A DNA stretch of 64,000 bases from the NCBI GenBank assembly GCA_000004985.1, contig GG738908.1, one strand, 5' to 3'. Both the position numbers and the translations under genes were made by a program. The notes under the pieces are model-generated. The model had not been told where the DNA came from, did no database searches, and saw only the letters and a program-made list of their open reading frames with translations. Within the stretch, counting starts at the first letter, position 1. Each line of letters starts with the position of its first letter. Positions 15,503-64,000 of this stretch are shown piece by piece. Source of the stretch: Naegleria gruberi (lineage: Eukaryota).

Positions 15503-18500
15503 TTATTGAATGAAAATGAAAGCAAGAATCAATGAAAACAATACAATGAAATAGAATTTGGAGGAAGATGCTTGGTTGACTGATTGTTGAGCTAAAGTTG
15601 GTGAAATGGCAAAATCAGTCAAGTGAACAGTTCTACATTTGACTCTGGTATTACTAATCTTGATAGATTCCAATCCAATTGATGAGAATTGTGATGATTG
15701 AGTATTGTAGAATTGACACAAACCCATCATTGTAGAATTCATTAAAGAAATGTCAACTTCAAACTCAATTGGGGAAGTGAGGTCTGAAATTTCGAGTTCA
15801 GTACCATTAGAAAGAATGTTAATTGAAATAATGGAAGAAACCAAATCAGTCTTGATGTGAGAGTAAATATTTTGTGAAATGATTGATAAGGAAATTGAAA
15901 CAGAAGCACTGGAATCTAATTGATATTTGGAAGAAAGCAACTTTTTCAAAGAATCCTTTGGTAAGCTCAAGGAAGAAAGTCCAATTTGAGAAGGTGAGAA
16001 ATTAAAGTTGTCAATTGTGCTCTTTACAACAGCTGTCTTGACAAGATTTGAAACTGAGACGCTCGATTGTCCATCAACCAATGACATGGCTGCTCCAACT
16101 TGACTAGCATCAATGACCTTCTTTAATTGAGAAGCAAAATTAGAATTTGATGTGGAAACAGTTGAAACCAATTGAGAAACTGTCTTGACAATGGAAGTTC
16201 TATCAGTAGATTGTAAGTTTTGCTTCAAAGATGTAGAAATACTCGACAATAAATTCAAAGTCTTTTGAGCTGTGTCTGATGTAATTTCTGATGGTTGATT
16301 GGTTAATCTTTCCAAAAGTCCAATCTTTGCGGTGTCAGAATCAGTTGAAGCAATAATTTGAGTCAAAATGTTACTTCTGATTGATGTCTTTTCAGTAGTT
16401 GTAAGCTTGGAATTGAGTAATGAATTGGCAATTTCCAAAGAACTCAATGAAGTGCTGCTAATCAAAGAGTTGACAAGTGAGCTAACTTCTTGAGCTGACA
16501 TGGTAGTAGTTGGATCTTGAATGGTCAAAACTTTAGTTTTTTCAACTGTTGTAAAAGCAGCATCTCTGACTGCAAAGAAAATTGTCACTTGTCCAGAGCT
16601 GAAAGTAGGAAGAGTAAATGTTGGGGATGTTGAGCTAGCACTCAATTCAGCAACATAAACTTTGCTATTTTCTTGAGTATAATAACCAAATGAATAGAGC
16701 ATGGTAAATGATTCTGGATCCGTGGCAACCAAACTAGCTCTTAAACTTGTCTTGACAGCAAGTGCAGAACTAATTTCCAATCCACTAGTAGCATTGACAA
16801 CCTTGAATGATGAAATAGTTGGTGATCTGTTAATGGTAATCTTTAAATCTTTTGAAACGGATACAGATCCAGTAGCAGAAACACGAGTAGCATTCAATCT
16901 GAAAGTATAAGTTGCTCCTTCTGTTAAACTATTTGCCTTAATGGCTAAATCTTTCTTGTCAGTTCCAGCAACTGAAATAGTTTCCAAATTGACTGCAGTT
17001 CCAGAAACTTGAGTCCACTTGTAGCTCAATGAAGAATACGCACTCAATGATGAAATTGTAGATTTGAAAACAATGTCCATCGATCCAGGAGTATAAACAG
17101 TTTGTCCAGAGGTGAAAGTTGGTGAACTGATAACAGCATCGAATGACAAATCACAACTTCCATAAACATAATTGGCTGGACAGGTACAAATATTTGGACC
17201 AGTACATTGTCCAAATCCACAACCACCCTTAGAGGAACAATCAAATACGTTACAATCACTTCCAGTATATCCTGACTTGCAAGTACAAACATTAGGTGAA
17301 GTACATGTACCATTTCCATTACAATTATTGAGAGTGGTACAAGTTGGAGTGTTACAACTAGCTCCTGTATATCCAGATTGACAAGTACAGACATTAGGAC
17401 CAGTACATTGACCACGATTCATGCAATTCGAAACCAAATTACAACTATATTGATTACAGGTACTTCCCTTATAACCAGCTTTACATAAACAAGTATTAAT
17501 GGCAAGACAATCACCATTTCCATTACAATTATTCACTCCAGCACATGATGGAGTTTCTCCAGGACGAACAGCTCTCAAGTAATTGCTAGTACATGCAGAG
17601 TTTTCACCCTGAGTGAGAAGATAGCCAACCGATGGATAATAATACTTGTATCCATTTGAATCTACTGCCTTAATATAATATTTTCTACAAGCAGTTCCAG
17701 AAGAAAGTCTAGTAGTATTATATTCGAAAGTTCCTGCATTCAAAGACGAATCAGTATACATACTCGATGTTGGAATACTCATTGGATATTCCACATCATT
17801 AATAAAAATGGAAACATTCAATGGAGCTACTCCCTTTCCCAAATCTGCCTTATGATAATAATTAGCAAGGAATGTAACTGTATCTGTGGCAAACGTAATA
17901 TGTGTAGCAGCAACGATTGGATTTGAAATACCATGTGAACCTGAGGCAAAATTCTGTGTCCAATAATCACTGAAACCTGTGGCTGCAACCTTTGGATAAT
18001 GTCCAACTCCAAGAAGGGTATATGAGCTTCCAAGAATGTTGGCTCTGTGTCCATCAGAATTAATCCAAGCCATGGTTACAGAAAGAGGACTTGTCTGTCC
18101 AGCTGCAATATTTTCAGCCATTGCTGCTGGTTTAGTGTAAAAAGTAGCAACTCTGGTGAAGGTTAGAGTTCCATCACATGAATTATGTTGAAAACAAGGT
18201 ACAGTTGCCATGTCTTTCGAATGGAATCGTCCAGATTCTACCAAATTGAAATGTTCGAAAAGTGGAGGCAAACCAGTGGTTTCCAATGACTTTTCTGCTT
18301 GGAATAAATTCAAGAATCTGGTCTTGAATCCTGAAGGAGACATTCTAGCCCAATTTGTTAAAACATGGACCGTCTTTTCGACATATCTCGAATAAGTGTA
18401 AACTAAATCAGAAAGTGCATTCACACCAACTTGATCACCAATTCCATAAAATTCCCAATTACCATTATCTGTGCTGCCATTGTTGGTTGAAGCACCACCA

Positions 18501-18685
18501 TCATTAGCAAAAGTGGCCATGACAGCACGTTTGTTTTTGGCAAATTTCAAATTGCTGTCAAATGCCATCGAAGGAGGATTTTGTGAAATGACAGATAGAG
18601 GTTCATGTTCTGCCAACACCAGAAAGAGGGAGGATAATACCAACACTACCAAGAGTGCATAATGCAACCTGTTACTCAACAACAT
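15503..18685 (-). CDS. Giant secreted protein: signal peptide, CAP/SCP (PR-1-like) domain, about 5 tenascin-type EGF repeats, and a long Ser/Thr-rich (mucin-like) tail. Single exon.
   Basis: Signal peptide 'MLLSNRLHYALLVVLVLSSLFLVLA'. CAP motif 'SDGHRANILGSSYTLLGVGHY' (compare 'GH[RY]xNIL...GVG' of SCP-like proteins). EGF repeats 'CNGNGDCLAINTCLCKAGYKGSTCN', 'CMNRGQCTGPNVCTCQSGYTGASCN', 'CNGNGTCTSPNVCTCKSGYTGSDCN'. The C-terminal ~500 aa are S/T-rich. Confidence 0.6.
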   Translation of the reverse strand: MLLSNRLHYALLVVLVLSSLFLVLAEHEPLSVISQNPPSMAFDSNLKFAKNKRAVMATFANDGGASTNNGSTDNGNWEFYGIGDQVGVNALSDLVYTYSRYVEKTVHVLTNWARMSPSGFKTRFLNLFQAEKSLETTGLPPLFEHFNLVESGRFHSKDMATVPCFQHNSCDGTLTFTRVATFYTKPAAMAENIAAGQTSPLSVTMAWINSDGHRANILGSSYTLLGVGHYPKVAATGFSDYWTQNFASGSHGISNPIVAATHITFATDTVTFLANYYHKADLGKGVAPLNVSIFINDVEYPMSIPTSSMYTDSSLNAGTFEYNTTRLSSGTACRKYYIKAVDSNGYKYYYPSVGYLLTQGENSACTSNYLRAVRPGETPSCAGVNNCNGNGDCLAINTCLCKAGYKGSTCNQYSCNLVSNCMNRGQCTGPNVCTCQSGYTGASCNTPTCTTLNNCNGNGTCTSPNVCTCKSGYTGSDCNVFDCSSKGGCGFGQCTGPNICTCPANYVYGSCDLSFDAVISSPTFTSGQTVYTPGSMDIVFKSTISSLSAYSSLSYKWTQVSGTAVNLETISVAGTDKKDLAIKANSLTEGATYTFRLNATRVSATGSVSVSKDLKITINRSPTISSFKVVNATSGLEISSALAVKTSLRASLVATDPESFTMLYSFGYYTQENSKVYVAELSASSTSPTFTLPTFSSGQVTIFFAVRDAAFTTVEKTKVLTIQDPTTTMSAQEVSSLVNSLISSTSLSSLEIANSLLNSKLTTTEKTSIRSNILTQIIASTDSDTAKIGLLERLTNQPSEITSDTAQKTLNLLSSISTSLKQNLQSTDRTSIVKTVSQLVSTVSTSNSNFASQLKKVIDASQVGAAMSLVDGQSSVSVSNLVKTAVVKSTIDNFNFSPSQIGLSSLSLPKDSLKKLLSSKYQLDSSASVSISLSIISQNIYSHIKTDLVSSIISINILSNGTELEISDLTSPIEFEVDISLMNSTMMGLCQFYNTQSSQFSSIGLESIKISNTRVKCRTVHLTDFAISPTLAQQSVNQASSSKFYFIVLFSLILAFIFIQ

Positions 18686-28352: not shown

Positions 28353-31300
28353 ATGTCATCACCACAACATGCAACCCTGCTTCTCGCCTTTTTNNNNNNN
28401 NNNNNNNNNNNNNNNNNNNNNNNNNNNNNNNNNNNNNNNNNNNNNNNNNNNNNNNNNNNNNNNNNNNNNNNNNNNNNNNNNNNNNNNNNNNNNNNNNNNN
28501 NNNNNNNNNNNNNNNNNNNNNNNNNNNNNNNNNNNNNNNNNNNNNNNNNNNNNNNNNNNNNNNNNNNNNNNNNNNNNNNNNNNNNNNNNNNNNNNNNNNN
28601 NNNNNNNNNNNNNNNNNNNNNNNNNNNNNNNNNNNNNNNNNNNNNNNNNNNNNNNNNNNNNNNNNNNNNNNNNNNNNNNNNNNNNNNNNNNNNNNNNNNN
28701 NNNNNNNNNNNNNNNNNNNNNNNNNNNNNNNNNNNNNNNNNNNNNNNNNNNNNNNNNNNNNNNNNNNNNNNNNNNNNNNNNNNNNNNNNNNNNNNNNNNN
28801 NNNNNNNNNNNNNNNNNNNNNNNNNNNNNNNNNNNNNNNNNNNNNNNNNNNNNNNNNNNNNNNNNNNNNNNNNNNNNNNNNNNNNNNNNNNNNNNNNNNN
28901 NNNNNNNNNNNNNNNNNNNNNNNNNNNNNNNNNNNNNNNNNNNNNNNNNNNNNNNNNNNNNNNNNNNNNNNNNNNNNNNNNNNNNNNNNNNNNNNNNNNN
29001 NNNNNNNNNNNNNNNNNNNNNNNNNNNNNNNNNNNNNNNNNNNNNNNNNNNNNNNNNNNNNNNNNNNNNNNNNNNNNNNNNNNNNNNNNNNNNNNNNNNN
29101 NNNNNNNNNNNNNNNNNNNNNNNNNNNNNNNNNNTATTGATGGTATCAATTCTTTCACAATTACTGGCTCTACATTTGCAAACAATTCCAAATTACACAT
29201 GACAACTGTTTTCAGCTCTACCTTGAGAGGTTTGACTTTTGAGGGAAATGAAAATGTTCTTTCTGCGAAAGGAATTGGTTCTTTTACATTGGAGCATTCA
29301 AATTTTACTCGCAATGGTAATCCAATTTATATTTCAGGAAATCAATTGACAAATCAATTTAGAAAAATTAGTTTTTGTTTATTTGAGGACAATTGGTCAA
29401 CCAGCAATGGTCTTATAACATTGGAACAGTTTCCCACACATGTGGAATTTAACAATTTCAGAAATAATTGGGCAGTGAATGGAGGAATAATTTATGCAAC
29501 TAGTTCCATAATTACTTTGGATAAAAATCAGTTTGTGGATACTTATGCAAGATTCATTGAAGGTTGTTTAGTTGATAATTGTGGAAATGGAGGAATTGCC
29601 TATATTTCTAATACTATTTTGTACATGTCCAATCTCATTATTCAAAATACTCAAGCAATTAGAGGAGGAATTGTTTATTCTGAGGGAAATTCTCGAATTC
29701 AAACCCAAAATTGTGATATTTCAGATAATATTGCTTCTTTGGCTGGTAATTTATTTTACTTTGGAGATGTTATTGATTTTAATGCCCAAAATTATTCGAA
29801 ATCTGACCTGAGTTCGAGGAAAACAACTCGAGCACTTTGGAGAACGGAATCTAGTCAACCTTACGATAATCAACGAATTGCCATCCAACCCGGGCAAACA
29901 ATACAATTGGATTTTGAGTATTTTGACATGTTTGACAACAGATTCAATAGAACAAATTCTGCTCCAATTATTAAGGCAAGTGATTCATCCAACATTCTTG
30001 TATCCCTCGTTTCAATTGATCCACTTTCCAATACTGACTTTAAATTCTTCTTGCAAGTGTCAGAAACTTCAAAAAGCTCAAATATTTCAGTATATCTCCC
30101 ATTCCATGACTTTACATTTGAGATTGATATTGATATTATTGGATGCCCTTTTGATTATGGTTTATCACCACTTTTAAATTCACACTACAACGTGTGTGTC
30201 TATAGAGGTTATATTATAATTGTATTCTCCTCTATTGGCATTGCAATCATTCTACTGGTTGCAATTTATTTATTGATCTATGTTGTTAAGAGATTACTCA
30301 AATTGAGAAAGAAGGAAATGACTGAAAAGGAAATTGCACAAAAGATTATTGATAAGAATTTTGTTTTTTCTATCAATACTGATAATGAGCACACTCCATT
30401 ATTATCAAAACTGGAAGTTGCCAAGATTAGTAATATCTTAATTCCAATTGAGGATATTGAAATCATCAAAAGAATTGGAGAAGGAGCTAATGGTACTGTA
30501 TACTTAGCTAAATGGCAAGGAAATCGTGTAGCTCTAAAAAGTTTAAAATTCGAAAGGGATAGCACTGACTTTGAAAATGAAGCATCTCTCCTTAATAATT
30601 TGAGACATCCTTCTATTGTGAGATTTTATGGAATTGTAGTGTCTTCTTCAGTTAAATACATGGTTACAGAGTTTGTGGAAAATGGAAGTTTGGATGCAGC
30701 CATTCATAATTCCAAAATTGGAAAGAAGAAACTTGATTTACAAACAAAATTACAAATTTTGAGAGGAATTGCAAATGGAATGAACTATCTTCATAATTTG
30801 AAAACTCCATGTCTTCACAGAGATTTGAAATGTCAAAATATTCTTCTCAATTCCAACATGGAACCAAAGGTTACAGATTTTGGATTGTCAAAATTGACTT
30901 TAAATTCAATGACATTGACTTGCAATATTGGAACAGCTCTTTACATGGTAAGTTTTCAAATTTAAGAGAGTTAAACCGAGTCAATCATTGTAAAGTCTCC
31001 TGAATTATTTGGAAGTGGTTACAAAATTTCATACAAATTGGACGTTTACAGTTTCTCCATCATCATGTACGAATTATTCTTTGAGGAAACTCCATTCTTT
31101 AGCTCATCAGCCAAGATGAGAAAATTTATCATTTCATCCACTGAACAATCACCAGAAGATGATCATGATACAATGAATTTTGGTTTTGCAATTCCAGTAA
31201 AAGTTTCGAAAGGAGAACGGCCAATGCTTCCCTGGACTAATGATGAGGAATGTGAAATGTGGATTAAGGAATTTATAGAACCCTATGAAGGAGGAGGAGG

Positions 31301-39821: not shown

Positions 39822-42800
39822 ATGGAGAAAGTACCACTCCAGCAAATATCAAAAAGAAAAGGTACGACCTTCAGATTCTTCCATGAAGCTAGTTGCAACG
39901 AGATAAATCAGCACAGAGCAGTGCTGTCATCATCATTGACAACAAGGAGTGGTTTGATCACACTGATGATTGTTGTTATAATAATGATGCTGGTTGTTGT
40001 GGAACATTCGGAAGCATCTCCCACAACAATAGCAGTTGCTGGTAGTGTGGGTAATACAGACGAGGCTTGGAATTTTCCACTGTATGGTACGGGTATATTT
40101 GTGGTGCCAAACAGTGATCCTTCATTGTTGCCAACTTTTTATGTTTCTGATGGAAATTTGTGTGTTGTGAGACAGATCATTGGAAATCAAAGTCGAGTGG
40201 TGGCAGGAACAGGTGAATGTTTACCAAACGGTGCTGATTCAGTTCCTGGAACAGAATCTACCTTGTATGGACCTACGAATATGTATTATGATGCTACTAC
40301 AGATTTTCTCTACATTTTGGATTCGTCATCTATTAGATTATTGGACATGAAGAGTGGAATAATTTCTAAAATGCTCATTACATTCAGTGGAACTAATTTA
40401 AACTCATTTTCTCAACCAAGTGGTATTACCATGTTCAATAAGGATATTTATGTGGCAGATACAGGAAAAGCTGTTGTGTGGAAAGTGCAAATTACCTATA
40501 GAAATGTTGGTACAGCAACAATTAGTGTTGGAAGTTTGAATAATATGAATAACAATAATTATTGTGATAATGTTTATGCCACCACGTGTAAACTTATCAA
40601 ACCTACAAGTATCTCTTTCTTCCCAGATGGAACCAAGGCAATTGCAGATGGAAGAAGAGTTATTATTGTTACTCCAACCAATTCGGCATATGAAGCTCCT
40701 GTATCCATGTCTATGAACAATCCAGTACATGTTGTCGCCTATGATGCATCCAACTTGTTGATTTCAGATCTAGGACTAGCACGTTTTATACAATTTAACA
40801 AGGATCAAGCACAACCAAATACTAATGTGGTATTGTCATCTTCTTGGGCAAGAAATACTTATTTTGGACTTGTGAAACAAGCAGACAATTCTAAAAATGT
40901 ATACTTCCTCACAGGTCAAGATTACACAACAAAGAGAAGTCAAATTGTTTCGTTTAACTTTATTGATAGCGATTTACCAAGTACTTCTACAACACCATTA
41001 TATGGCATGTATGACTCTGGATTCCAGTTTGATAATCCACATAATGCATTGAGTGTTTACATGCCTAGTCCACAACAAATGAGACTAACTTCAAGTAATC
41101 AATTGTATTTCCCAATTTTTAATTCTGCTGTTGTAAAGGTAGATTTGAATTCTGGATTAGTGACAAGAATTGCTGGAAGTATTACACAATTTGGATATAA
41201 TCAAGACAGTATCCCTGCAACCATAGCTCTGATGACTAGACCAAATACTGTTTTACAATTGGATTCCGGAGATTTAATCATTTCAGATACAGGTAATAAC
41301 AGAATTAGAAAAATTGATTCAAATGGAATTATAACTACAATAGTTGGTACAGGAACGCAAGGAAATAGTGGAGATTATGGGCCTGCAAGTCAATGCCAAT
41401 TAAATGGTCCACAAGGACTGGCAACACCTCCAACAAGCATGAAAGGTCAATTTTTGTTTGATTTTGCTGACACTAATAATAACAGAATTAGAAGAATACA
41501 AAATGACTTGACAGTTATACCCCTATTAAGCAATAATCCTAATAATGATGGAATTAACGGACCAAATGGAATAATGTACACGCCAAATGGTGATCTTTAT
41601 ATCGCCAGTCAAGGAAATCACAAAATAATGAAATACAGTAATTCACAATTGAGTACTGTTGCTGGAAATGGTTATGCAGGTTATTCAGGAGATGGAGGAC
41701 CAGCCAGAAATGCCAAGTTGAACTATCCTGCAGATGTTACAGTTTCCTCCACAGGTGAAGTTTATATTGCAGGTATGTTTTGAAGAAATTTAATGTAATT
41801 TTTAAACGATTCATCTACTAGATTGGGGAAATAGAGCTGTAAGAAAAGTTTTCAGAAATGGAACAATTATTACTCTTATTGTTAGTGGCGGACTTTCGGA
41901 CTTGAATGGTGTTACATTGACACCGAATGGAGATTTGTTGTATTCAACACAATTATGGGTCAAGCTGTATATGGAGGGAGATTCAGGAAGTTGTATTGAT
42001 AAGAATACATGCAATAATCATGGCAGTTGTGTGAATGGAAAGTGTGTTTGTGATAGTGGATGGAGAGGAAATTTGAATTGTGGAACATTTTCATGTGACA
42101 TTACACCACCACCTCATTCTTCACAATGTATTGGTCCAAATCAATTTTCTTGTCAAGATGGGTGGACAGGATTAAATTGCCAGGAACCAGTTTGCTTTGG
42201 AACTCCAGCAAACACCACAACAGTATGCAGTTCACACGGTAAATGTATTTCCAATAATACATGTAATTGTGTGAGTGGATGGAGAGGCAATTCAGATTGC
42301 AGTGCATTTTCATGTGATGTAAAATCTGAACATGGAGAGTATTGTATTGGACCTAATACCTACAAATGTCAAGATGGCTGGATTGGTGATTTATGTGACA
42401 TTCCACTTTGTAATGGAATTCCAGCAAATAATCCAGCAGTTTGCAATTCACACGGACAGTGCATTTCCAATAATACATGTAATTGCTTTAGTGGATGGAG
42501 AGGAAATAGTATTTGCACTCAATTTACATGTGATGGTGTCAATAATTGTCAACCTCATGGTCAATGCATTTCTAATAATACTTGTAAATGTAGTACTGGT
42601 TATGGTGGAAATGGATGTAACGATAGAATGTGCTTTGGTAAATGGGGTCAAGCAGGTTGCAGCAATAATGGATATTGTTCAAATACTGACAAGTGCAGTT
42701 GTTTCCCTCTCTATTTTGGACAACAATGTCAGTGGCTTGATTGTAATCCCTCTTCAAATGATCAATCCATTAATTCTACTAAGGGCTGTTCTTCAAATGG

Positions 42801-44082
42801 AAACTGTACTGTTATTGACAATGATCAAACCAGACAAAACTCAACAATTTGTAAATGTAACGAAGGATTTGATGGGCTGTATTGTCAAGAAAAGAAGTCA
42901 TCAGGAAATGGTGGAACTGTTGCAGCTGTTGTCATTGTTGTGTTGCTTTTCATTTGTTGTTTGATTGCTTTCATAGCAGTTGGTGGTTTTGTTTATTACA
43001 AGAAACGAGCAAGTTCCAAATCAGAGGAATTTGAGAATTTGATTCCAAAATCTGTTAACGACGATTGGACTTTGAGAACTGTTATTCCTCCAGAGGAGGC
43101 AACTGTGAAAAGTACAGCCTCTTCTGTTAAATCTGAAAATAGCTTTATACGGTCAATTAGAAAGCAACTGGGTAGTTCAAGTACAACATCTTCTGTATCA
43201 ACCATTAACACAAGAGATCATTTCCATATTAGAGATAAAGAATATGTGAAATCAAAGAAATTGGGATCAGGTGCAAGTGGAACAGTTTTCATGTTTGATG
43301 AGTTGACCAATAAGGAACAAGTTGCTGTGAAAATTATTGAAGTTTTAAATCCAAATGGAAGCGAATTTAAGGAAGTTGTGAACATGTTTGAATTGAGTGA
43401 AGAAGCAAATCCTCACATTGTTCCAATTCTAGGATGTACAATGGTTGAAAATGGAGGATATATTTGTATCTTGATGCCATTATACAAATGTGATTTGAGA
43501 AATTGGATGTATTCCAATAAGGAGACGGTTCCAATCGAAATAATTGTCGAAATTGTGAAACAAATTGCATCAGCACTTCAATATCTCCATTCTAAGAACA
43601 TGGTACACAGAGATTTGAAACAAAGTAATATATTTGTTTCAAAATCACCTGATCTTTCAAAGAATAATGTGAATGTTTCATCTTTCCAACTTTGTGTTGG
43701 AGATTGGGGATCTTCAAGATATCAAACAAGATCTTCTTTAACTGCTTATGAAGGAACAATTCAATACAGTTCACCAGAGTCAATTGTAAAAGCAGAATTT
43801 TCACCAAAAAGTGATGTTTGGAGTCTTGGATGTATTTTATATCAATTATTATCAGCAGATTACAATACTTGTTTGATGAGAGTGAAACAAACCTCAATGA
43901 ATGACCAATCAGATGTTCAAATCATAGGAAATGTTGAAAAATTCTTTTCAAAACGTTCAGATCATTCACACAAACTTTACAAAATCATTTGTGATTTAAT
44001 GTTGGAAATGTTGAGATTTAATCCAGAGGAGAGAATTTCCACAGATGAAATTGTCCAAAAACTCTCAATGAACAATGTTTAA
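39822..44082 (+). CDS. Receptor-type protein kinase with NHL-repeat beta-propeller ectodomain, about 8 tenascin-type EGF repeats, a TM helix and a cytoplasmic kinase: join(39822..41772, 41822..44082).
   Basis: aaaaaaaATG at 39822 with N-terminal signal anchor 'GLITLMIVVIIMMLVVV'. NHL repeats 'LIISDTGNNRIRKID', 'FDFADTNNNRIRRIQ', 'LYIASQGNHKIMKY'. Donor g|GTATGT at 41773 and acceptor ...ctactag| at 41821 give '...VYIAG'+'DWGNRAVRKVF'. EGF repeats 'CNNHGSCVNGKCVCDSGWRGNLNCGTFSC'. TM 'TVAAVVIVVLLFICCLIAFIAVGGFVYY'. Kinase 'GSGASGTVFM', 'VAVKII', 'HRDLKQSNIFV', 'GDWGSS'. Confidence 0.7.
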
Positions 44083-44144
44083 TAATATTATTTAATAATA
44101 AATTAAATATTTACGAATATTTATAAAATTTTGATAAGAAAAAA

Positions 44145-45221
44145 ATGCAACAAGTTGTTTTATTATTGGATGATGATTTGTCTCAATCGTTTGGTGATAT
44201 CGGAAGTGATTGGTTGTTTATAAAATTATCAACACAAATGCGAACTAAATTATTGCAAAATTCACACGAATTTCACACCACAAACTTTAAACTCGTGCAC
44301 ACGATTGGTGAGTGCAAACGAAAAGGCTCTTCCGAATATTTGTTGAATGATCCTATGGGTTTAAAAATTAGCAAATTGATGAATTGGTTGTTAATATGTG
44401 ATTCGGGAAATAAGAGAGTACAAATATATGACAGATTTAATTTTGAATACTTGTATTCGATTCGGATGAAAACTCAACCTCAATATGTGGAAATTGAAGA
44501 GTGGCATGATCAGTGTGGATATTATGCAGATGAGAATTCATTATTACTATACATTACTTGTTCGAATCAGGTTTTAATCAAGATGAAAGTTACTGTAGTG
44601 ATGGAAGAAAATGAAAAGAAACTTCATGTTGAGGAATTGTGGAATACTCGAGAATTATTGGAAAGAAATGAACTAAGTGCAGAGTATGGGCTATTCTTTG
44701 AGAGATTCAACCAAGAATATTTGAATTCTGTCTTGTATGTTTGTGATTCAACCAAGAGAAGAATTGTCATGTTGAATGCCCTTGATGGAAGCATTCTCAA
44801 TCAATTATTTCTGAAAAGAAAGGAGAAATTCAGTTCAGCAGTCTCTATTCTAATCGATTCTAAAAAGAAATGGATTTTAGTGAGCGAAATGGCTGGTCAA
44901 CGTGTGAAAATTTTAGATTACAAAACTAGACAATTATTACACTCACTTGGAAAGTATGGAAAAGAGTTGGATGAATTTTCATATCCTAGAGGAATATTCT
45001 TGGAAGAGAAGATGAATAGATTATATGTGTGTGATGCTTCAAATAATAGAATTTCGCTGATTGACTTGGACAAGTTGGAATTTGTGGAATATTTTGGAGG
45101 AAAGAATTCGAATATGGAACAAGTTCAATTGAAAACACCAACTTCAGTGGTGATTGATGATTCGACTGGAACTCTTCTAGTTTCTGATAACAAATTAGAT
45201 CAAGTTTTCATCTTTAGATGA
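44145..45221 (+). CDS. NHL-repeat (six-bladed beta-propeller) protein, probably soluble.
   Basis: aaaaaaaATG at 44145. NHL blades 'LLICDSGNKRVQIYD', 'LYVCDSTKRRIVMLN', 'ILVSEMAGQRVKILD', 'LYVCDASNNRISLID', 'LLVSDNKLDQVFIF'. Confidence 0.6.
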   Translation: MQQVVLLLDDDLSQSFGDIGSDWLFIKLSTQMRTKLLQNSHEFHTTNFKLVHTIGECKRKGSSEYLLNDPMGLKISKLMNWLLICDSGNKRVQIYDRFNFEYLYSIRMKTQPQYVEIEEWHDQCGYYADENSLLLYITCSNQVLIKMKVTVVMEENEKKLHVEELWNTRELLERNELSAEYGLFFERFNQEYLNSVLYVCDSTKRRIVMLNALDGSILNQLFLKRKEKFSSAVSILIDSKKKWILVSEMAGQRVKILDYKTRQLLHSLGKYGKELDEFSYPRGIFLEEKMNRLYVCDASNNRISLIDLDKLEFVEYFGGKNSNMEQVQLKTPTSVVIDDSTGTLLVSDNKLDQVFIFR

Positions 45222-51758: not shown

Positions 51759-54700
51759 ATGAGCGAATCACATGATATCGGCAACAGTGGTGCTCTCAAA
51801 CATCATCATCATCAATTAGATAATAGTAGTAAGGAAAATGGTGGCTCAATTGTTAGCTCTTCATCAAATACCCAATCAAATATCAGCAAGGGCGCATTTT
51901 CCTTCATGAAGAGCATAATATATGATAAGCTTTTTAATTTTCTAGCAATGGCCAAATCTTCCGAGAGCAGAAATGGAAGAAAATGGCAATCAATCTATTA
52001 TTTGTTTCATATCTATTTCTTTTTCGTCATCTTAATAATACCTACTCTATCAACATATTATCCAAACCTCTATACATCAGATACAACACAATATGCATCA
52101 AGAATTCAGAGTTTCCCTCTCCCTTTGGATACTATGGTGGTTTTGTATTTAGAGTTTTGAACTACTTCATAACGTTTGGCGTTGATACTCTTAGTGCTCC
52201 CTATTATTTTACTATTGCACTGTCATCAGTCATCATATTACTTTACTCATGCTTCCCACTCTTGGTTGTTTACACTCACAAAAAACTCTATGGAAGCGCC
52301 AAGAAACGACTCAATTCTTTTGTGGGCATATTTTCCTTCCTTGTTCTTGTTTTTGCTCCTTTCAGTATCTTTGTAATGACTAGTTTTATTGATTGTGATT
52401 TGAAAACAACAATAAGTGTGGATGGTTTTGATGTATATCCACTGATCAGGTTTCCAACCTATGCATGCTACGATTCAAGCAATGTCATTCTCATTGTAAT
52501 TAACTATATAGGAATGGCCATCTTGTTGGGAAGTTCTTTGATGGCTGTACATATTCTTCCAATGGGTAATCCAGAATCTTCCATACCCTTTCTTTCTGAA
52601 AACCAATTCACATTGATGGGAATTATTGGAAACACCATTTTTAGAATTGGTATTGTTTTTGCAATTCCATATTATCTACTTTATTTGAGAGCTATTGTAC
52701 ACGCAGTATTTTCAATTGTTTCAATAGTCTATCTTTTTTTTGGAGTGCCATTCTTTAAAAGATATGAAAACTCTGTTTATTCTGCAGTATTATTTGGTTC
52801 ATTTGGATCAAGTATTGGAGTTTTGATTAGCTGCCTTGTAAATACTTCAAACGATAATAATTTGGGAGCTGGAATGCTTGGTCTGGTATTTGGATTAACA
52901 ATAATTTTCATGTCAATTGGATATATTGTTATGGAAATTTACACAAGATTAATGGTACATAAAATTAGAAAGATTTTCCACCAATTCTTGAACCAAACAA
53001 CAGACTCCATGTCAGAGGATGATGGCTTGACAAGCATAATGGAAAGATACTGTGCTGAGATATTTTCGACCATTTCAAACACATCACTAACAGCATTCAG
53101 AATGTATATGCAATTCAATATCAAGAAAAAGGTTGGCTATGCTGTTAACGAAAGAACGGATAGCAATATCATTTTGGTATTCATCAAGACATATGCTCCC
53201 AAGAAGAATTTCGATTCACCAATCCTATTATTGTACTCTTCCTTATTTATTTCTCATCAATGGACTGATCCTAATAGGTATTCCTTTGCACTTTATCTAT
53301 TGAAGAGAACTGAGAAGAATCATAACAATAATTATTTTGTAAAACTTTCAGTCTTGTGCAGATGTAGAGATATGGAAATGCATATTGACAAGTCACATAA
53401 TGGAAGAGGAAATTTGGAAGTGAAAGCACTTTTGGATAAACTGGAACAAAAGCAAGAGGAATTGAAGAATGTACATAGAGCATTTTGGAAAGAAATGACA
53501 GCAGAACGTCCTAAAGAGGAGAAAATCTACACTATCAATGCTATTTCAGCAGAAATTATGACATACTGTGATGAATCCTATGAGCACTTACTAGCAAACT
53601 TTCCTCATGATAAAACAGTGATAAGATACTATGCTAATTATGTTGAAAATATCAAGTTGGATAAGGAACTATCTACTGGACTCTTTGAAGAAGCACAAGT
53701 TTTAGAAGAGGAAGAATCTAAAAACTCGAGAACTTCAACCTATCTCTTCAACACCTCAAGAAAGGGATCCAAATTCAAAACCAACCGAGTAGCTCCAGCA
53801 AATTCTCACAGTTTTTCAGACAATTTGAGAACCAGTGAAAATAGTCTTACATCTTTTACCCAAAGAAGACCATCATCTCCTACAAATCACACCATTACTC
53901 CGGAATTGAGTGTTATCGACAAACAAATACTCGAAGATTCAGATGATTTTCGTGGGGTAGAAGAAGAATTAACTCCACAACAACTTCACTACCGTCGGGC
54001 TGCTGTCTTTAGAAATGCTTTAAACACTCCATATGAATCCTCTATTAGAAAATCTATTTTCATAGGACTTGCTGTACTCTCAGTTCTTTTATTGGCTGCT
54101 ATTTTTTCTGTCTCTGTTTATTATGATATTGAAGTTACGAAAACATATTTGGTAAAATCCAGCTGTCTTACTATGAGTTCACCTGGTGCAATGCTTCGAG
54201 ATATTAGATTGATGCAAATTCTAACTGAAACATATGGAAATTTGAAATGGAAAATACCTGAAAATGGAACCGTAGAGTACCAAGAATTACAGACCTATAT
54301 GAGCTATTATACCAAAGCTTTTACTTTCCAACAACAAAATTTATTGAACCTTCAAGCTGTTTCACAATCAGGATCTTTTTCTGAAAGAATGTATCAGGAC
54401 TATACAGTTGAGGACAAGACCATAATGGTACCAATTTCTAACGATACATCTTCAAACACACTTCTAGAATATACAAACACATTCAAAAAAACAACATCAG
54501 TCAGAGAAATTACTCAAGAATTATTAACCCATGCCAATTCTGTTCTAGAATTACAAATAGACTATAACAAATCTCTAAATAGTTATCCATTCATGTACAT
54601 TTTTCAAAATAGAAAGTATGCAGCTGATGCTTTTTACACCTTTTGCAAAGCGTAAGTTTTTAAATTTTGAATGCTATCTTAATATCATCTTACAGATTTC

Positions 54701-57332
54701 AAGAAAGTGAAAAAATTCACATTCAAGAATCTAGAGATATCCTAGGCCAAATTCTGCTTGGATGCTCTGTTGGATTTTCTACTATAATTCTAATTAGTAT
54801 CTCAATTTCAAGATTAGAAATGGAAAAATCTTCAATTATATTTAAACTATATAAAACCATTTCGAAGGATATTATTGGAGTTATTTTTCAAGAGTTGGAT
54901 AAGAAACATAAGAATGATGAGCTTAAAGGACTTAAAAAGAAACGACTTCCAAAACCAAAACATACAACAGTAATTGTTTCATTTATTATTATTGCAATAT
55001 TTTTGGTTTGTTCTGGAATTTTCTATCAGGAAATGTTGACAAATGTTGAAAGAGCAAATATTGCCATGCAAAATGTTGATATTGCATCTCTAATGATCAG
55101 AACAACCAATAGAATTACTCTGAGATTGAATGAAATGTTTTCCTATCTCAGTATTCCACTAGGAAAATCGGTAAATAATCCTGCTATTGTTACCGCTTCT
55201 GTTATTGCACAATACAGAGCAGATGTGAGAACATTTACAACAACTGTACAATCTCTATTCTCTCAATTAGTTTACGGAACTAACAGTACAAACTCAATTA
55301 TTGGCATTTACCCTAAAATTGATGAAATGTTAAAGGGAGATCCTACTTGTGATAATGTTACCTTATTGTATTGTGGAAGTTTGGAACAAATGGTATCAAT
55401 TTATACTATTTTGGGTGGAGGAATGTCTGAAAACTTTTTCAATCCAATCTATGCCAAAAACTCTAAAGAAGTGTTGAATTATCTTGTAAAAATGTATAAT
55501 ATGAACGATATGGTTTTCGAAAAGCTTGTTGATTTCATGGATTTGTTGGTTACCTATACTGGTCAAGCTAGTTTATCATCAACTATTGGACTTTTTATTG
55601 CTGGATTGATAGTCTTGTTAATTTCCAATTACACCATGTATTTATCTATTATTACCTATGACAGACAAGTTTCCAGTTTGAGAGGAATGTTGAACTATTT
55701 ACCTTACGAGTGGATTGAATCGAATGAAACTGTAAAGAATTTTGTTTTCTATAATTCCTTGCCACTCGTTAATCAAAGGAATAATTTAAAGAAGGGAAGT
55801 GATACACTCAACAATTTACTTCATTCCATGGTTGATGGTGCAGTGCTTTCTAACGAGAAGGGAGAAATTCTTCTATTCAACACTGCATGTCAAAGACTAT
55901 TCTCTAAAATTCCTTCAGAAGTAATGGGACTCAAATTCTACTCATTATTTGATAAGGCCAACGAATCTAAATTAATAGACATTGCCAGAAATTGTAGAGA
56001 TTACCTTGTTGAAGGAGAGAACAATAAGAATGGTGAAGTTATGGAGTTGAATTGTATCAGAAAGAATCTATCCACATTCCCTGCACAAGTTAATATTTTC
56101 GTCACAAGAGATGGTGATAATAAGGTTGTCATTGTATGCTTTATCAAGGATATTACTACAGAAAAGAAGGCAAATACATTACTAAGTGAAGAAAAGAAGA
56201 ATTCTGAAAAGTTGTTGAGAAATATTCTACCAGAATCTGTTGCATTGAAATTGAAGAGTGGTAACAGCTTTGTTGCTGAAAGATTTAATGATGTTAGTGT
56301 ATTCTTTTCAGATATGTAAGTATTCCACAATTATTATTATTCATAATATTCATATATATTCCATAATTATTATTCAATATATTAATATTACTCAAATTAA
56401 ATAGGGTTGGATTTACAGCATTATCATCGGATATGAATCCATCTGATTTGATATTACTATTGAATAATGTAGTGAATGGATTTGATGATTTGACTGACAA
56501 GTATGAATTGGAAAAGATTAAAACTATTGGAGATGCATACTTTTGTGTTGGAGGTTTACCAATCAATCCACAATCTGATCACCCTGAAAGAACGCTCCGA
56601 TTTGCTATGGATTGTTTTAGTGTAATTAGAGGATTCAACCAAGCTACAAATGGAGAGAAGGTTATCAATATTAGGTTAGTATTATTATTATTTGTAATAT
56701 TTAGGTAGATGTTAATATTGTTGTTGTGCTCATCCATCTATATAGAATTGGTATTAATACTGGATCAGTTGTAGCTGGTGTTATAGGAAAGAAGGTAAGT
56801 TTTTATAATTGTTATTAATAATATTCATGATGATAATTGTTGAATAGAAATTTGCATATGTGAGTGTTGTTATTATTAAAACATTATTAATTGTTTAATA
56901 TTTTCATACTGATGCTGAATGATGAATAATTATTATTAGGATCTGTGGGGAGTAAGTAAATTATAATTAAAATTCAAATACTAACCAAACATCAAGGATA
57001 CAATCAACACTGCCTCCAGAATGGAATCTAACAGCAAGCCAGGGCGTATTCAAATTTCACGATCAACCTATGAAAGGTATGTGTTAAAATCTTCTATTTG
57101 TTGATATATTATTCTACTTTATAGAGTGTACGATTTAGGATTTGAATTTGAAGAAAGAAGTATTGATGTGAAAGGAAAGGGTGTATGTACTTGTTACTTG
57201 ATGAATGAAAGGTATCACGATAATCCACTGGATATTCAAGTTGTTGGTAATAATACTGTTGTTCCACCTGTGGCTTCCGAGAATCCAATCATGACAGCCT
57301 TGTCTGATGACCAGACTTCATTGACACAATAA
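51759..57332 (+). CDS. Polytopic membrane class III nucleotidyl (adenylyl/guanylyl) cyclase with PAS domain, 8 or more exons: 51759..~52100 (frame change near 52000-52140), ..54651, 54696..56315, 56405..56674, 56745..56793, 56848..56859, 56940..56951, 56997..57076, 57134..57332.
   Basis: N-terminus 'MSESHDIGNSGALKHHHHQ', then about 10 TM helices, further TMs at about residues 700 and 900, and PAS 'MVDGAVLSNEKGEILLFNTACQRLF'. The cyclase core spans the introns: 'RFNDVSVFFSDM|VGFTALSS...KIKTIGDAYFCVGGLP...INIR|[59 protein letters not shown]...'. Donors are GTAAGT, GTTAGT, GTGAGT or GTATGT and all acceptors end in AG, as listed. Confidence 0.7.
56848..56951 (+). other. Two consecutive 12-nt microexons (56848..56859 'KFAY' and 56940..56951 'DLWG') within the cyclase catalytic domain.
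   Basis: ...gttgaatag|AAATTTGCATAT|gtgagt and ...attattag|GATCTGTGGGGA|gtaagt. Their inclusion restores the conserved cyclase segment GxxxP(R/K)YxLWGDTVN ('[22 protein letters not shown]'). Confidence 0.65.
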
Positions 57333-58963: not shown

Positions 58964-60526
58964 ATGACTGCACTCTTCATCTCTTTCCTTCTTCTCCTTT
59001 GCACATCACTGAAACTATCACATGCTACTACCTATCCAGTTTATAACATTTCCAATTTTTTGGGAGGTGGTAGTGTTTTAGGAGATGGTGGATTGGCTGT
59101 GAATGCCAAAGTAGAATATACTGAAGGAGTTGCAGTCAATTCTAAAGGAGAAGTATTAGTAGTACAGAATTTTTATGGTCGTGTTAGAAAGGTTGATAAA
59201 AATGGATATGTTACAACGATAGCAGGATTTGGAACTTCTGGTGATAGTAGTGGAAATGGAGGTTTGGCAACTAATGCAATGCTTGGCTACCCTGCAGGAA
59301 TTACAGTTAACGATAAAGATGAAATTTATCTTGTGGAATATGGAACTCACATGGTTCGAAAGATTTTGGTGAATGGAACAATTCAAGAATTTGCTGGAAT
59401 TTTAAATGGTGGAGGATTTGGAGGAGATAATGGATTGGCAACGAATGCTATTTTTAACCATCCGTATGGAGTTTCAGTTAATCCATTAACAGGTGATGTT
59501 TACATTTCAGATTTTTCGAATAATCGAATTCGTAAGGTAGATTCGAGTGGAATCATTTCAACATATGTTGGAACTGGAAATACAGAGTATGGAGCTGATG
59601 ACATTTTGGCTGTTAATGCTAATATTAACAGTCCTTATTATATTGCAACAGGTCCAAATGGTGATTTATACATCCCATTAGTAGGATCATCTAGAATTTG
59701 TAAAGTTTCGTATAGTACTGGAAAAATTACAACCATAGCAGGTACTGGAGCTTATGGGTATAGTGGAGATGGTGGATTGGCAATTAATGCTGTGATTAGA
59801 TATCCAAAAAGTATAGCCATAGGTAAACATGGTGAAATTTTTTTTACTGATTCGGATAATCAAGTCATTCGTCGAATTACTCCAGATGGAATCATTACAA
59901 CCATAGCGGGCACTGGTAATTTTGGTTATTCTGGTGATGGCGGTTTAGCAACAAGTGCTGATATCAGTAAGCCAACTGGAATAGCTGTAGATTCGAATGG
60001 AACCATTTACTTTTGCGATAATAACAATAATAGAGTTAGAAAGTTAGTTCCTTACTGTTTGGATGGAAAGCTAGTGAATGGAACTTGTGAATTTTCTTGT
60101 TTTGGAATCAAGAACAATCTTGCAACTGTTTGTAATGGTCATGGAAATTGTTTGGCCACAAATAGTTGTTTATGTGATTCTGGATGGAAAGGAAATGTAC
60201 AATGTTCTCAATTCAGTTGTGATGGTTTGAATAATTGCAATGGGCATGGCAGTTGTGTTTTGAATAATACTTGTCAATGTCAAGATGGTTGGAAAGGAAA
60301 TTTAGAGTGTTCTCAATATAGTTGTGAAAGAGTTAATAATTGTAATGGAAGAGGAGCTTGTGTAGGTGTCAATACTTGTTTGTGTGTTAGTGGATATTTT
60401 GGAAAAGAATGTCAATACAAAACCTGTTTTGCAAATAGTAACAATGAAATGCTAAATTATGGAAATAGACCATTTACCATGTCTGAAAGATTTTGTCAAA
60501 AGATAAATAAACAGTTATTGGTTTAA
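58964..60526 (+). CDS. Secreted NHL-repeat beta-propeller plus tenascin-type EGF-repeat protein (no TM or kinase within the ORF). Related in ectodomain architecture to the receptor kinase at 39822..44082.
   Basis: aaaaaaaATG at 58964, signal peptide 'MTALFISFLLLLCTSLKLSHA'. NHL blades 'VYISDFSNNRIRKVD', 'IFFTDSDNQVIRRIT', 'IYFCDNNNNRVRKLV'. EGF repeats 'CNGHGNCLATNSCLCDSGWKGNVQCSQFSC', 'CNGHGSCVLNNTCQCQDGWKGNLECSQYSC'. Confidence 0.65.
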   Translation: MTALFISFLLLLCTSLKLSHATTYPVYNISNFLGGGSVLGDGGLAVNAKVEYTEGVAVNSKGEVLVVQNFYGRVRKVDKNGYVTTIAGFGTSGDSSGNGGLATNAMLGYPAGITVNDKDEIYLVEYGTHMVRKILVNGTIQEFAGILNGGGFGGDNGLATNAIFNHPYGVSVNPLTGDVYISDFSNNRIRKVDSSGIISTYVGTGNTEYGADDILAVNANINSPYYIATGPNGDLYIPLVGSSRICKVSYSTGKITTIAGTGAYGYSGDGGLAINAVIRYPKSIAIGKHGEIFFTDSDNQVIRRITPDGIITTIAGTGNFGYSGDGGLATSADISKPTGIAVDSNGTIYFCDNNNNRVRKLVPYCLDGKLVNGTCEFSCFGIKNNLATVCNGHGNCLATNSCLCDSGWKGNVQCSQFSCDGLNNCNGHGSCVLNNTCQCQDGWKGNLECSQYSCERVNNCNGRGACVGVNTCLCVSGYFGKECQYKTCFANSNNEMLNYGNRPFTMSERFCQKINKQLLV

Positions 60527-61177: not shown

Positions 61178-64000
61178 TGTAAATTTGATGGTTTCATTTC
61201 GTATATTGATAGATATATAAAGGTCAGGTCAGTATCAACTTTTGAATTATGGACTTTGAGAAGTCAAATGTTTGGGACGTGAATCTACTCATTAGATTTC
61301 ATAGGTATTGCTAATAAAGGAACATTTCATTGATTTATTGATCATAACGGTCAAATTGAGTTGAATGGAAGTGAATCACATGTTGATTCATCGTGGTTGG
61401 GTAGTTTCGCCACGTAGTGGTGCAACTACCAACCTTTGTAGATTGAATCAGGTTGATTTGCATGCAATATGAATAAGTAACATTATCAAGAGTGATTATT
61501 CACCAATTCAATGACCAATATTCAATAATCGGTTTGATTCAATCAATAGCTTAATCATCAAGCTTTGAATATTAATATTCCAGTAATCAACGGCAGTCTA
61601 TTTTTAAATTTAATCAAAGACCATATATAGTATCTTGACTTTTATGATATGTAAACTATCTAGATGTGTTCTATATTGAATAATCTATATGAAAATGAGA
61701 AGAAATAAAATTAACTCTTAAATTGAGTTTATTTATATTACTATATATGGTATTATTTCTTACAGAGTCTTCCACAGAACCCACTCTTGAACTAATAATT
61801 GTACTAGAGCGTGTGAGAAACATAATGGTGGTGAAAGTGATCAGTAACTTGTTGAAATGACTGAGATGGAATGTAAACTATGGTCTAAATGTCATGTATT
61901 TGTAACTAGACAGTGTCAACTCCGCCAAAGTGCCTTAAAATAGATTGATATCATCAGATACACTTCTACGCACCACATATACCTCATAGAACGAGTTATG
62001 ACATTATATATTAGANNNNNNNNNNNNNNNNNNNNNNNNNNNNNNNNNNNNNNNNNNNNNNNNNNNNNNNNNNNNNNNNNNNNNNNNNNNNNNNNNNNNN
62101 NNNNNNNNNNNNNNNNNNNNNNNNNNNNNNNNNNNNNNNNNNNNNNNNNNNNNNNNNNNNNNNNNNNNNNNNNNNNNNNNNNNNNNNNNNNNNNNNNNNN
62201 NNNNNNNNNNNNNNNNNNNNNNNNNNNNNNNNNNNNNNNNNNNNNNNNNNNNNNNNNNNNNNNNNNNNNNNNNNNNNNNNNNNNNNNNNNNNNNNNNNNN
62301 NNNNNNNNNNNNNNNNNNNNNNNNNNNNNNNNNNNNNNNNNNNNNNNNNNNNNNNNNNNNNNNNNNNNNNNNNNNNNNNNNNNNNNNNNNNNNNNNNNNN
62401 NNNNNNNNNNNNNNNNNNNNNNNNNNNNNNNNNNNNNNNNNNNNNNNNNNNNNNNNNNNNNNNNNNNNNNNNNNNNNNNNNNNNNNNNNNNNNNNNNNNN
62501 NNNNNNNNNNNNNNNNNNNNNNNNNNNNNNNNNNNNNNNNNNNNNNNNNNNNNNNNNNNNNNNNNNNNNNNNNNNNNNNNNNNNNNNNNNNNNNNNNNNN
62601 NNNNNNNNNNNNNNNNNNNNNNNNNNNNNNNNNNNNNNNNNNNNNNNNNNNNNNNNNNNNNNNNNNNNNNNNNNNNNNNNNNNNNNNNNNNNNNNNNNNN
62701 NNNNNNNNNNNNNNNNNNNNNNNNNNNNNNNNNNNNNNNNNNNNNNNNNNNNNNNNNNNNNNNNNNNNNNNNNNNNNNNNNNNNNNNNNNNNNNNNNNNN
62801 NNNNNNNNNNNNNNNNNNNNNNNNNNNNNNNNNNNNNNNNNNNNNNNNNNNNNNNNNNNNNNNNNNNNNNNNNNNNNNNNNNNNNNNNNNNNNNNNNNNN
62901 NNNNNNNNNNNNNNNNNNNNNNNNNNNNNNNNNNNNNNNNNNNNNNNNNNNNNNNNNNNNNNNNNNNNNNNNNNNNNNNNNNNNNNNNNNNNNNNNNNNN
63001 NNNNNNNNNNNNNNNNNNNNNNNNNNNNNNNNNNNNNNNNNNNNNNNNNNNNNNNNNNNNNNNNNNNNNNNNNNNNNNNNNNNNNNNNNNNNNNNNNNNN
63101 NNNNNNNNNNNNNNNNNNNNNNNNNNNNNNNNNNNNNNNNNNNNNNNNNNNNNNNNNNNNNNNNNNNNNNNNNNNNNNNNNNNNNNNNNNNNNNNNNNNN
63201 NNNNNNNNNNNNNNNNNNNNNNNNNNNNNNNNNNNNNNNNNNNNNNNNNNNNNNNNNNNNNNNNNNNNNNNNNNNNNNNNNNNNNNNNNNNNNNNNNNNN
63301 NNNNNNNNNNNNNNNNNNNNNNNNNNNNNNNNNNNNNNNNNNNNNNNNNNNNNNNNNNNNNNNNNNNNNNNNNNNNNNNNNNNNNNNNNNNNNNNNNNNN
63401 NNNNNNNNNNNNNNNNNNNNNNNNNNNNNNNNNNNNNNNNNNNNNNNNNNNNNNNNNNNNNNNNNNNNNNNNNNNNNNNNNNNNNNNNNNNNNNNNNNNN
63501 NNNNNNNNNNNNNNNNNNNNNNNNNNNNNNNNNNNNNNNNNNNNNNNNNNNNNNNNNNNNNNNNNNNNNNNNNNNNNNNNNNNNNNNNNNNNNNNNNNNN
63601 NNNNNNNNNNNNNNNNNNNNNNNNNNNNNNNNNNNNNNNNNNNNNNNNNNNNNNNNNNNNNNNNNNNNNNNNNNNNNNNNNNNNNNNNNNNNNNNNNNNN
63701 NNNNNNNNNNNNNNNNNNNNNNNNNNNNNNNNNNNNNNNNNNNNNNNNNNNNNNNNNNNNNNNNNNNNNNNNNNNNNNNNNNNNNNNNNNNNNNNNNNNN
63801 NNNNNNNNNNNNNNNNNNNNNNNNNNNNNNNNNNNNNNNNNNNNNNNNNNNNNNNNNNNNNNNNNNNNNNNNNNNNNNNNNNNNNNNNNNNNNNNNNNNN
63901 NNNNNNNNNNNNNNNNNNNNNNNNNNNNNNNNNNNNNNNNNNNNNNNNNNNNNNNNNNNNNNNNNNNNNNNNNNNNNNNNNNNNNNNNNNNNNNNNNNNN

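Follow-up and report, generated by a model that had tools for sequence, protein, structure and literature searches.

Background

Microexons, defined here as exons of at most 15 nt, are well described at this size in animals as well as in plants. Coding microexons of plants within the same limit (<=15 nt) have been catalogued by Yu et al. (2022), and adjacent ones are documented, as in the 5-nt and 12-nt phase-0 pair of the Peptidase M1 genes (PMC8831610). A search of the literature for work linking Naegleria with microexons returned no relevant report. The N. gruberi genome is said, reportedly by Fritz-Laylin et al. in 2010, to average less than one intron per gene. Across the genus Naegleria, 26 adenylate-cyclase orthogroups have been counted (PMC9928731).

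The window, that is, the whole stretch of DNA analysed here, comprises 64,000 nt of Naegleria gruberi contig GG738908.1 (assembly GCA_000004985.1). It has a GC content of about 33%, contains N gaps, and derives from a Sanger draft assembly.

A large gene near the end of the window appears to encode a membrane-bound TmcB-TPR/PAS/class III adenylyl cyclase, and the part coding for its catalytic domain includes two neighboring segments of 12 nt each. On the evidence given below, these segments are very probably genuine coding microexons that are most likely included constitutively.

Gene structure and encoded protein

The predicted features of the gene are listed in Table 1. The encoded protein of roughly 1,650 amino acids would begin with a multi-pass membrane region followed by a TmcB-type TPR domain (PF25474); a second membrane/sensor region would come next, then a PAS domain, and last a class III cyclase domain. 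An N. gruberi paralogue, P0126 (1,695 aa), is full-length and has the same domain architecture.

Table 1 Predicted features of the cyclase gene (positions are those of the window; a slash marks an exon-intron boundary)
Feature	Position	Strand	Description
Cyclase gene	about 51759-57332	+	Eight exons and seven introns, all with canonical ends
Exon 1	51759-54651	+	N-terminal multi-pass membrane region and TmcB-type TPR; long ORF, PF25474 match; donor GC/gtaagt
Exon 2	54696-56315	+	Second membrane/sensor region, PAS, and start of cyclase to FFSD(M), including D45; Pfam PAS_9/PAS; bounded by cag/ and /gtaagt
Exon 3	56405-56674	+	VGFTALSS to KVINI(R), including K85 (base-specifying) and D89 (metal-binding); splice sites, spliced alignment
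Exon 4	56746-56794	+	49 nt; 3' end reads ...GVIGKK, then gtaagt; splice sites, spliced alignment
Intron 4	56795-56847	+	53 nt, gtaagt...tag, phase 0, 17% GC
Microexon 1	56848-56859	+	12 nt, phase 0; AAATTTGCATAT, coding for KFAY (K153 F154 A155 Y156)
Intron 5	56860-56939	+	80 nt, gtgagt...tag, phase 0
Microexon 2	56940-56951	+	12 nt, phase 0; GATCTGTGGGGA, coding for DLWG (D157 L158 W159 G160)
Intron 6	56952-56996	+	45 nt, gtaagt...aag, phase 0
Exon 7	56997-57076	+	80 nt; begins after caag; carries transition-state Asn164 and Arg168; splice sites, spliced alignment
Exon 8	57125-57332	+	C-terminal part of cyclase to stop TAA; splice sites, spliced alignment

In the sequence, microexon 1 is preceded by ttgaatag and followed by gtgagt, and microexon 2 is preceded by attattag and followed by gtaagt; both are therefore in-frame exons of no more than 15 nt with canonical 3' and 5' splice sites. 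Within only 24 coding nt there are three short spliceosomal introns (53, 80, and 45 nt), each with canonical GT-AG ends. Their GC content of 17-20% makes them AT-rich like the remaining introns of the gene, and intron 6 carries a tactaac motif 10 nt upstream of its acceptor. The lengths of introns 4 and 5 are not multiples of three and intron 6 contains an in-frame TAA, so that none of the three can be read through.

Catalytic domain and the residues contributed by the microexons

The spliced product matched the Pfam Guanylate_cyc profile (PF00211) over positions 2-182 of 183 with 190.4 bits (cut-off 21.9), which places it among the class III cyclases. The canonical set of catalytic residues is complete (D45, K85, D89, R136, D157, N164, R168, and K203/205), and the metal-binding residues D45 and D89 lie 44 residues apart, as do Asp396 and Asp440. 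In the C2 domain of AC-II the equivalent positions are the base-specifying Asp1018, Asn1025, and Arg1029 (Table 1 of PMC6005667); the spacing from D157 to N164 (+7) and to R168 (+11) is the same. D157, coded by the first codon of microexon 2 (56940-56942), is the counterpart of the base-specifying Asp, a mark of ATP specificity in that table. Its partner K85 lies in EKIKTIGD, and the Lys85/Asp157 pair, found in place of Glu/Cys, predicts specificity for ATP and hence an adenylyl rather than a guanylyl cyclase.

Conservation was assessed over 32 homologous proteins of heteroloboseans and bacteria. Six of the eight microexon-coded residues are conserved in this sample, with K153, F154, D157, W159, and G160 invariant and Y156 conserved in at least 90%; D45, D89, N164, and R168 are invariant as well. 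In Naegleria paralogues and homologues, a 13-residue segment containing KFAYDLWG is identical, including all eight residues coded by the microexons. The view taken from the sequence alone, that KFAY-DLWG is what should be found at this site of the fold, thus agrees with the homologues. That reading had gone further and held that a domain without the microexons would lose essential substrate-binding and transition-state-binding residues. This is right for the base-specifying D157, but the ribose/transition-state residue Asn164 and the phosphate-binding, transition-state residue Arg168 both lie in exon 7, outside the microexons.

These residues were placed in the fold with the help of the structure that AlphaFold predicts for the N. 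gruberi paralogue P0004 (mean pLDDT 88.4). In the model, A-Y-D-L-W forms a beta-strand (E267-271) that leads into a helix (H273-283); the boundary between the microexons halves the strand, microexon 1 coding for a loop and for the first part of the strand.

Removal of the microexons lowered the Guanylate_cyc score stepwise, from 190.4 bits with both to 174.5 bits with DLWG alone, 168.8 bits with KFAY alone, and 157.8 bits with neither, a total loss of 32.6 bits. Across the microexon stretch the spliced protein aligned without gaps to either catalytic domain of adenylyl cyclase 9 (AC9), and the spliced cyclase domain matched solved adenylyl cyclases at E = 1e-63. Both exons are shown by these comparisons to be needed to restore the predicted catalytic domain, and the expectation of the sequence-only reading that the profile would be matched in full only when both are included was borne out.

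Annotation and integrity of the locus

Searches spanning every exon of the gene were run against a collection of 5.8 billion proteins and returned no protein identical or nearly identical to any exon; an exact look-up of a 1,090-aa ORF from the window likewise gave no record. The best matches in the collection were to N. fowleri for the C-terminal half (50% identity) and to P0126 for the N-terminal half (29%). Two neighboring single-exon ORFs are exact matches to N. gruberi proteins, namely EFC38359.1 (24075-25148) and EFC38369.1 (58964-60523), which are both assigned to one scaffold of 259,034 bp and confirm N. gruberi as the source of the window. It would seem, then, that the cyclase gene has escaped annotation or, at the least, that its protein has no entry in the collection searched, and an apparently intact sensor adenylyl cyclase of about 1,650 residues from a model amoeboflagellate is left without a public protein counterpart.

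The 5' part of the gene contains a one-base frame change within 52065-52112, which was located by homology to P0126 and to the upstream ORF of N. fowleri in two different frames. An intron was considered as its cause and rejected, as no usable GT...AG pair lies between the homology blocks and the sole GT would delete the conserved FGYYGG. An alternative start, ATG 51983, is in the downstream frame. The frame change could be an assembly error or a very recent inactivating mutation, or it could be bypassed by a start at ATG 51983.

If the mutation were real and inactivating, the locus might be a decaying or dead gene, in which case the microexons would no longer matter and its absence from the protein set, in which neighboring genes are represented, would reflect that state. 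We consider this unlikely. Apart from the 5' frame change, about 1,600 codons are open and homologous to P0126, all seven introns have kept canonical ends, the catalytic residues are intact, and the microexon residues are the same as in active-looking paralogues. Moreover, a base error in the draft assembly or a start at ATG 51983 accounts for the frame change equally well. An intact gene is accordingly the preferred reading of the locus.

Splicing and the possibility of regulated skipping

Introns in the range of 45-80 nt are recognised individually, and intron retention rather than exon skipping prevails among them. Introns 4, 5, and 6 have consensus donors (GTAAGT, GTGAGT, and GTAAGT) and YAG/AAG acceptors, and under intron definition each would be recognised and removed separately. 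With introns that are short and individually recognised, an exon of 12 nt would need no special machinery, and we infer that both microexons are included constitutively. The joined exons would then supply the loop and beta-strand that run into the helix carrying the catalytic Asn and Arg, with the adenine-specifying Asp at the first codon of microexon 2.

The sequence-only reading had offered skipping of either exon as a plausible regulatory mechanism yielding an inactive, possibly dominant-negative cyclase. On such an account the microexons would be cassette exons, and conditional skipping would produce an in-frame dead subunit that poisons dimers. It is true that skipping of either or both exons keeps the frame, each being 12 nt long and in phase 0, that the skipped forms remain above the Pfam threshold (157.8-174.5 bits), and that class III cyclases work as dimers with shared active sites. 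However, the intron lengths and the strong donors belong to the regime in which retention is favored over skipping. The deleted residues include half or all of the A-Y-D-L-W strand of the P0004 model, so that a misfolded product would be more likely than a well-behaved dominant negative, and the relatives examined code for the stretch in one piece, which argues against a conserved regulatory feature. Regulated skipping is thus very unlikely and the proposal is unsupported; constitutive inclusion is retained as the preferred reading.

Support for both microexons

An independent check of the exon boundaries was made with a protein-to-genome spliced aligner written for this analysis, using as guide the N. 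fowleri homologue P0001, in which the stretch is free of introns. Exon 4, the two microexons, and exon 7 were returned with the boundaries given in Table 1 at intron penalties of 10, 15, and 20. The microexon positions and their AG and GT(A/G)AGT flanks had been read exactly in the initial inspection of the sequence, whereas its end of the upstream exon (56793) was off by one, the actual position being 56794. The 202-nt interval between exons 4 and 7 contains exactly two segments of the form AG-12nt-GT, and these are the two microexons. When the interval was shuffled 200,000 times, the best ordered pair of such segments scored 23 BLOSUM62 units against KFAY plus DLWG, compared with 49 observed. 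It had also been asked whether KFAY and DLWG might be supplied elsewhere, and tblastn found neither an alternative source of these residues nor a second cyclase within the 64-kb window.

The remaining alternative would place both segments, as fortuitous AG...GT strings, within a single long intron (56795-56996) and leave the real protein eight residues shorter. Its probability is negligible: the 56794/56997 junction is in frame too, but no shuffle out of 200,000 approached the observed score, five of the microexon-coded residues are invariant across the family, and dropping all eight incurs the Pfam loss reported above. From these comparisons, we infer that both microexons are spliced into the mature transcript.

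Intron positions in relatives

The closest sampled relatives code for the KFAYDLWG stretch without these introns. In N. fowleri (L001) the stretch is contiguous, and in L003 it is likewise free of introns. L002 has a single intron after GVIG, L004 a single intron before GVIG, and the gene of Acrasis kona (L006) is intronless. The contig of L054 stops short of the stretch, and its one intron interrupts the GG motif at aa 149 in phase 2. Because the closest sampled relatives lack the introns, the microexon arrangement most likely arose by lineage-specific insertion of introns into a continuous exon.

A comparison of seven loci (the window gene, L001-L004, L054, and Acrasis, six of which have introns), for which exon models are mostly homology-guided predictions of this study and several loci come from metagenome contigs, gave 17 intron positions in about 150 codons, one of them shared. 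The shared intron is FFSD/M in phase 2, present in the window gene, L001, and L003. Several other positions are near misses: four genes differ in having an intron at aa 196, 201, 205, or 207, and two have one at aa 149-150. An ancestor with all 17 introns is implausible, and gene-specific gains are therefore more economical; the seven loci, a small sample, thus favor the gain of introns over their loss. With three introns in a stretch of 24 coding nt, none of them present in any sampled relative, the window gene is a clear-cut candidate for a cluster of recently gained introns.

No introner-type repeat family was detected among the seven introns of the gene by blastn-short within the 64-kb window, which gave only (ATT)n-like low-complexity matches of at most 25 nt. 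When metagenomes were scanned for the KFAY microexon together with its flanking splice sites (AGAARTTYGCNTAYGTRAGT), 47 matches came up, none beside a cyclase, which is the chance level, and a search of metagenomes for an orthologue of the exon-2 protein produced 256 pattern matches and no relative. An orthologue with the same two microexons was not found in these metagenome scans.

Further microexons and consequences for gene models

The public model of the N. fowleri homologue, FDP41_003059 (P0001), treats a 49-nt intron as coding sequence and lacks the conserved GG...SDHPER segment. When a 5-nt microexon, GGAGG (L001 4730-4734, contig VFQX01000033.1), is included in our homology-guided model, FCVGGIGNTQSDHPERTLK is regained and the Pfam score improves modestly, from 172.5 to 181.9 bits; FDP41_003059 thus seems to be mis-modelled at this microexon. 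A homology-guided model of metagenome contig L003 likewise contains a 13-nt microexon, which would code for IKTI(G), and the gene calls P0010 (L002) and P0006 (L003) end where the homology-guided models place introns. In the window itself, tblastn with the catalytic domain gave no HSP over KFAY. It had been anticipated from the sequence that a gene of this structure would be hard to annotate, and this is consistent with the missed KFAY, the lack of a protein in the 5.8-billion collection, and the apparent fault in the N. fowleri model.

As a tentative suggestion, which we regard as possible but somewhat doubtful, the catalytic domain of Naegleria-type PAS-cyclases may be a hot spot at which introns have recently been inserted in individual genes, a process that repeatedly creates motif-coding microexons of 5-13 nt which defeat automatic annotation. 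If this were true, a sizeable share of the Naegleria cyclase family would be either absent from gene sets or wrongly modelled, and the family would offer a natural system for studying the origin of new introns. The finding is of practical value chiefly for gene annotation: with the window gene missing from the protein collection and the N. fowleri model apparently at fault, counts and comparisons of this large family may be biased.

Comparison with known systems

Like the plant microexons (PMC8831610), the Naegleria pair is very short, is flanked on either side by canonical introns, codes for conserved domain residues, and is of a kind often missed or mis-modelled by annotation pipelines. Unlike the plant microexons, which are mostly ancient and kept across land plants, the pair occurs in a heterolobosean gene with introns of 45-89 nt, is absent from every sampled relative, and looks lineage-specific. 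Closer parallels are the predicted 5-nt and 13-nt microexons of N. fowleri FDP41_003059 and of L003, which also lie in the catalytic domain between short gtaagt...ag introns, code for invariant motif residues (GG and the Lys of IKTIG, respectively), and are mishandled by automatic models; they differ from the pair in the window gene in being single and at other positions of the domain.

In its domain layout the protein resembles the rest of the Naegleria PAS-cyclase expansion, the TmcB-TPR, PAS, and cyclase arrangement being common to N. gruberi P0126 and P0005 and to adjacent ORFs of N. fowleri and L002. For the N. fowleri TmcB-TPR ORF and PAS-cyclase ORF, taken as one intron-joined gene, the alignment over the junction contained a stop.

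Judged by its residues, the window protein resembles the class III adenylyl cyclases with a Lys/Asp pair, such as the C2 domain of mammalian adenylyl cyclases and the homodimeric mycobacterial enzymes of the Rv1625c type, with metal, base, ribose, and phosphate residues at canonical spacing. The enzyme would appear ordinary, and the window gene seems to differ from other class III cyclases in gene structure only, that is, in the introns crowded into 24 coding nt. No new mechanism is involved, and the microexon pair is a curiosity of gene structure that belongs to a known kind.

Intron positions and predicted microexons

Across approximately 150 codons of the cyclase domain, 17 intron positions were recorded in a comparison of the window gene, the Naegleria fowleri contig L001, the loci of related cyclases L002, L003, L004 and L054, and the Acrasis kona locus L006, and the sole position held in common was FFSD|M (phase 2). 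Four genes carry an intron inside the 12 codons around one 12-residue stretch of this domain, and the sites all differ.

The public model of the N. fowleri homologue FDP41_003059 (L001 4681-4860, VFQX01000033.1) translates through a 49-nt intron, and the conserved GG...SDHPER segment is missing from its protein. Inclusion of a 5-nt microexon, predicted by homology, regained the family consensus and raised the Pfam score from 172.5 to 181.9 bits. The catalytic domain of the related PAS-cyclase gene of L003, a metagenome contig, contains five introns of 34-44 nt each; those of 44 and 41 nt flank a predicted 13-nt microexon within which the base-specifying Lys is encoded.

Gene structure upstream of the cyclase domain

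Homology in two frames marks a one-base reading-frame change in the 5' region of the window gene (52065-52112). Similarity to the full-length N. gruberi paralogue P0126 and the N. fowleri upstream ORF follows the frame of the first start codon as far as ...IIPTLSTYY and, from ...SPFGYYGGFVF onward, that of the long ORF. No usable GT...AG intron was found between these two blocks. The cause could be an error in the assembly or a frameshift of recent origin, or translation could begin at a downstream start.

In N. fowleri and L002, the TmcB-TPR and PAS-cyclase parts were called as two neighboring genes separated by less than 100 nt. This split is probably an annotation artefact, because both parts lie within a single protein in the window gene and in the N. 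gruberi paralogues P0126 and P0005. A stop is present in the alignment across the N. fowleri junction.

Locations of the features described
Feature	Location	Strand	Remark
Start codon, cyclase gene	window 51759		ATG
Alternative start codon	window 51983		ATG
TmcB-TPR and PAS-cyclase ORFs	L001 60-2915 and 3001-5355	same	N. fowleri
TmcB-TPR and PAS-cyclase ORFs	L002 1434-3899 and 3938-6460	same	
Predicted 5-nt microexon	L001 4730-4734		GGAGG; introns 4681-4729 and 4735-4817
Predicted 13-nt microexon	L003 3070-3082		ATCAAAACAATTG, IKTI(G); ENA ERZ27315067 k141_928242
EGF/NHL-repeat gene	window 15503-18685	-	fused to CAP domain
EGF/NHL-repeat gene	window 39822-45221	+	fused to protein kinase domain (41902-44082)
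EGF/NHL-repeat gene	window 58964-60526	+	
N run	window 4088-4137		scaffold gap
N run	window 28394-29134		scaffold gap
N run	window 62016-64000		to window end

Other features of the window

The terminal N run appears to be either padding or unsequenced DNA. Teneurin-like EGF and NHL repeats occur in the products of several window genes, which appear to form a local group of paralogues for surface or receptor-type proteins.
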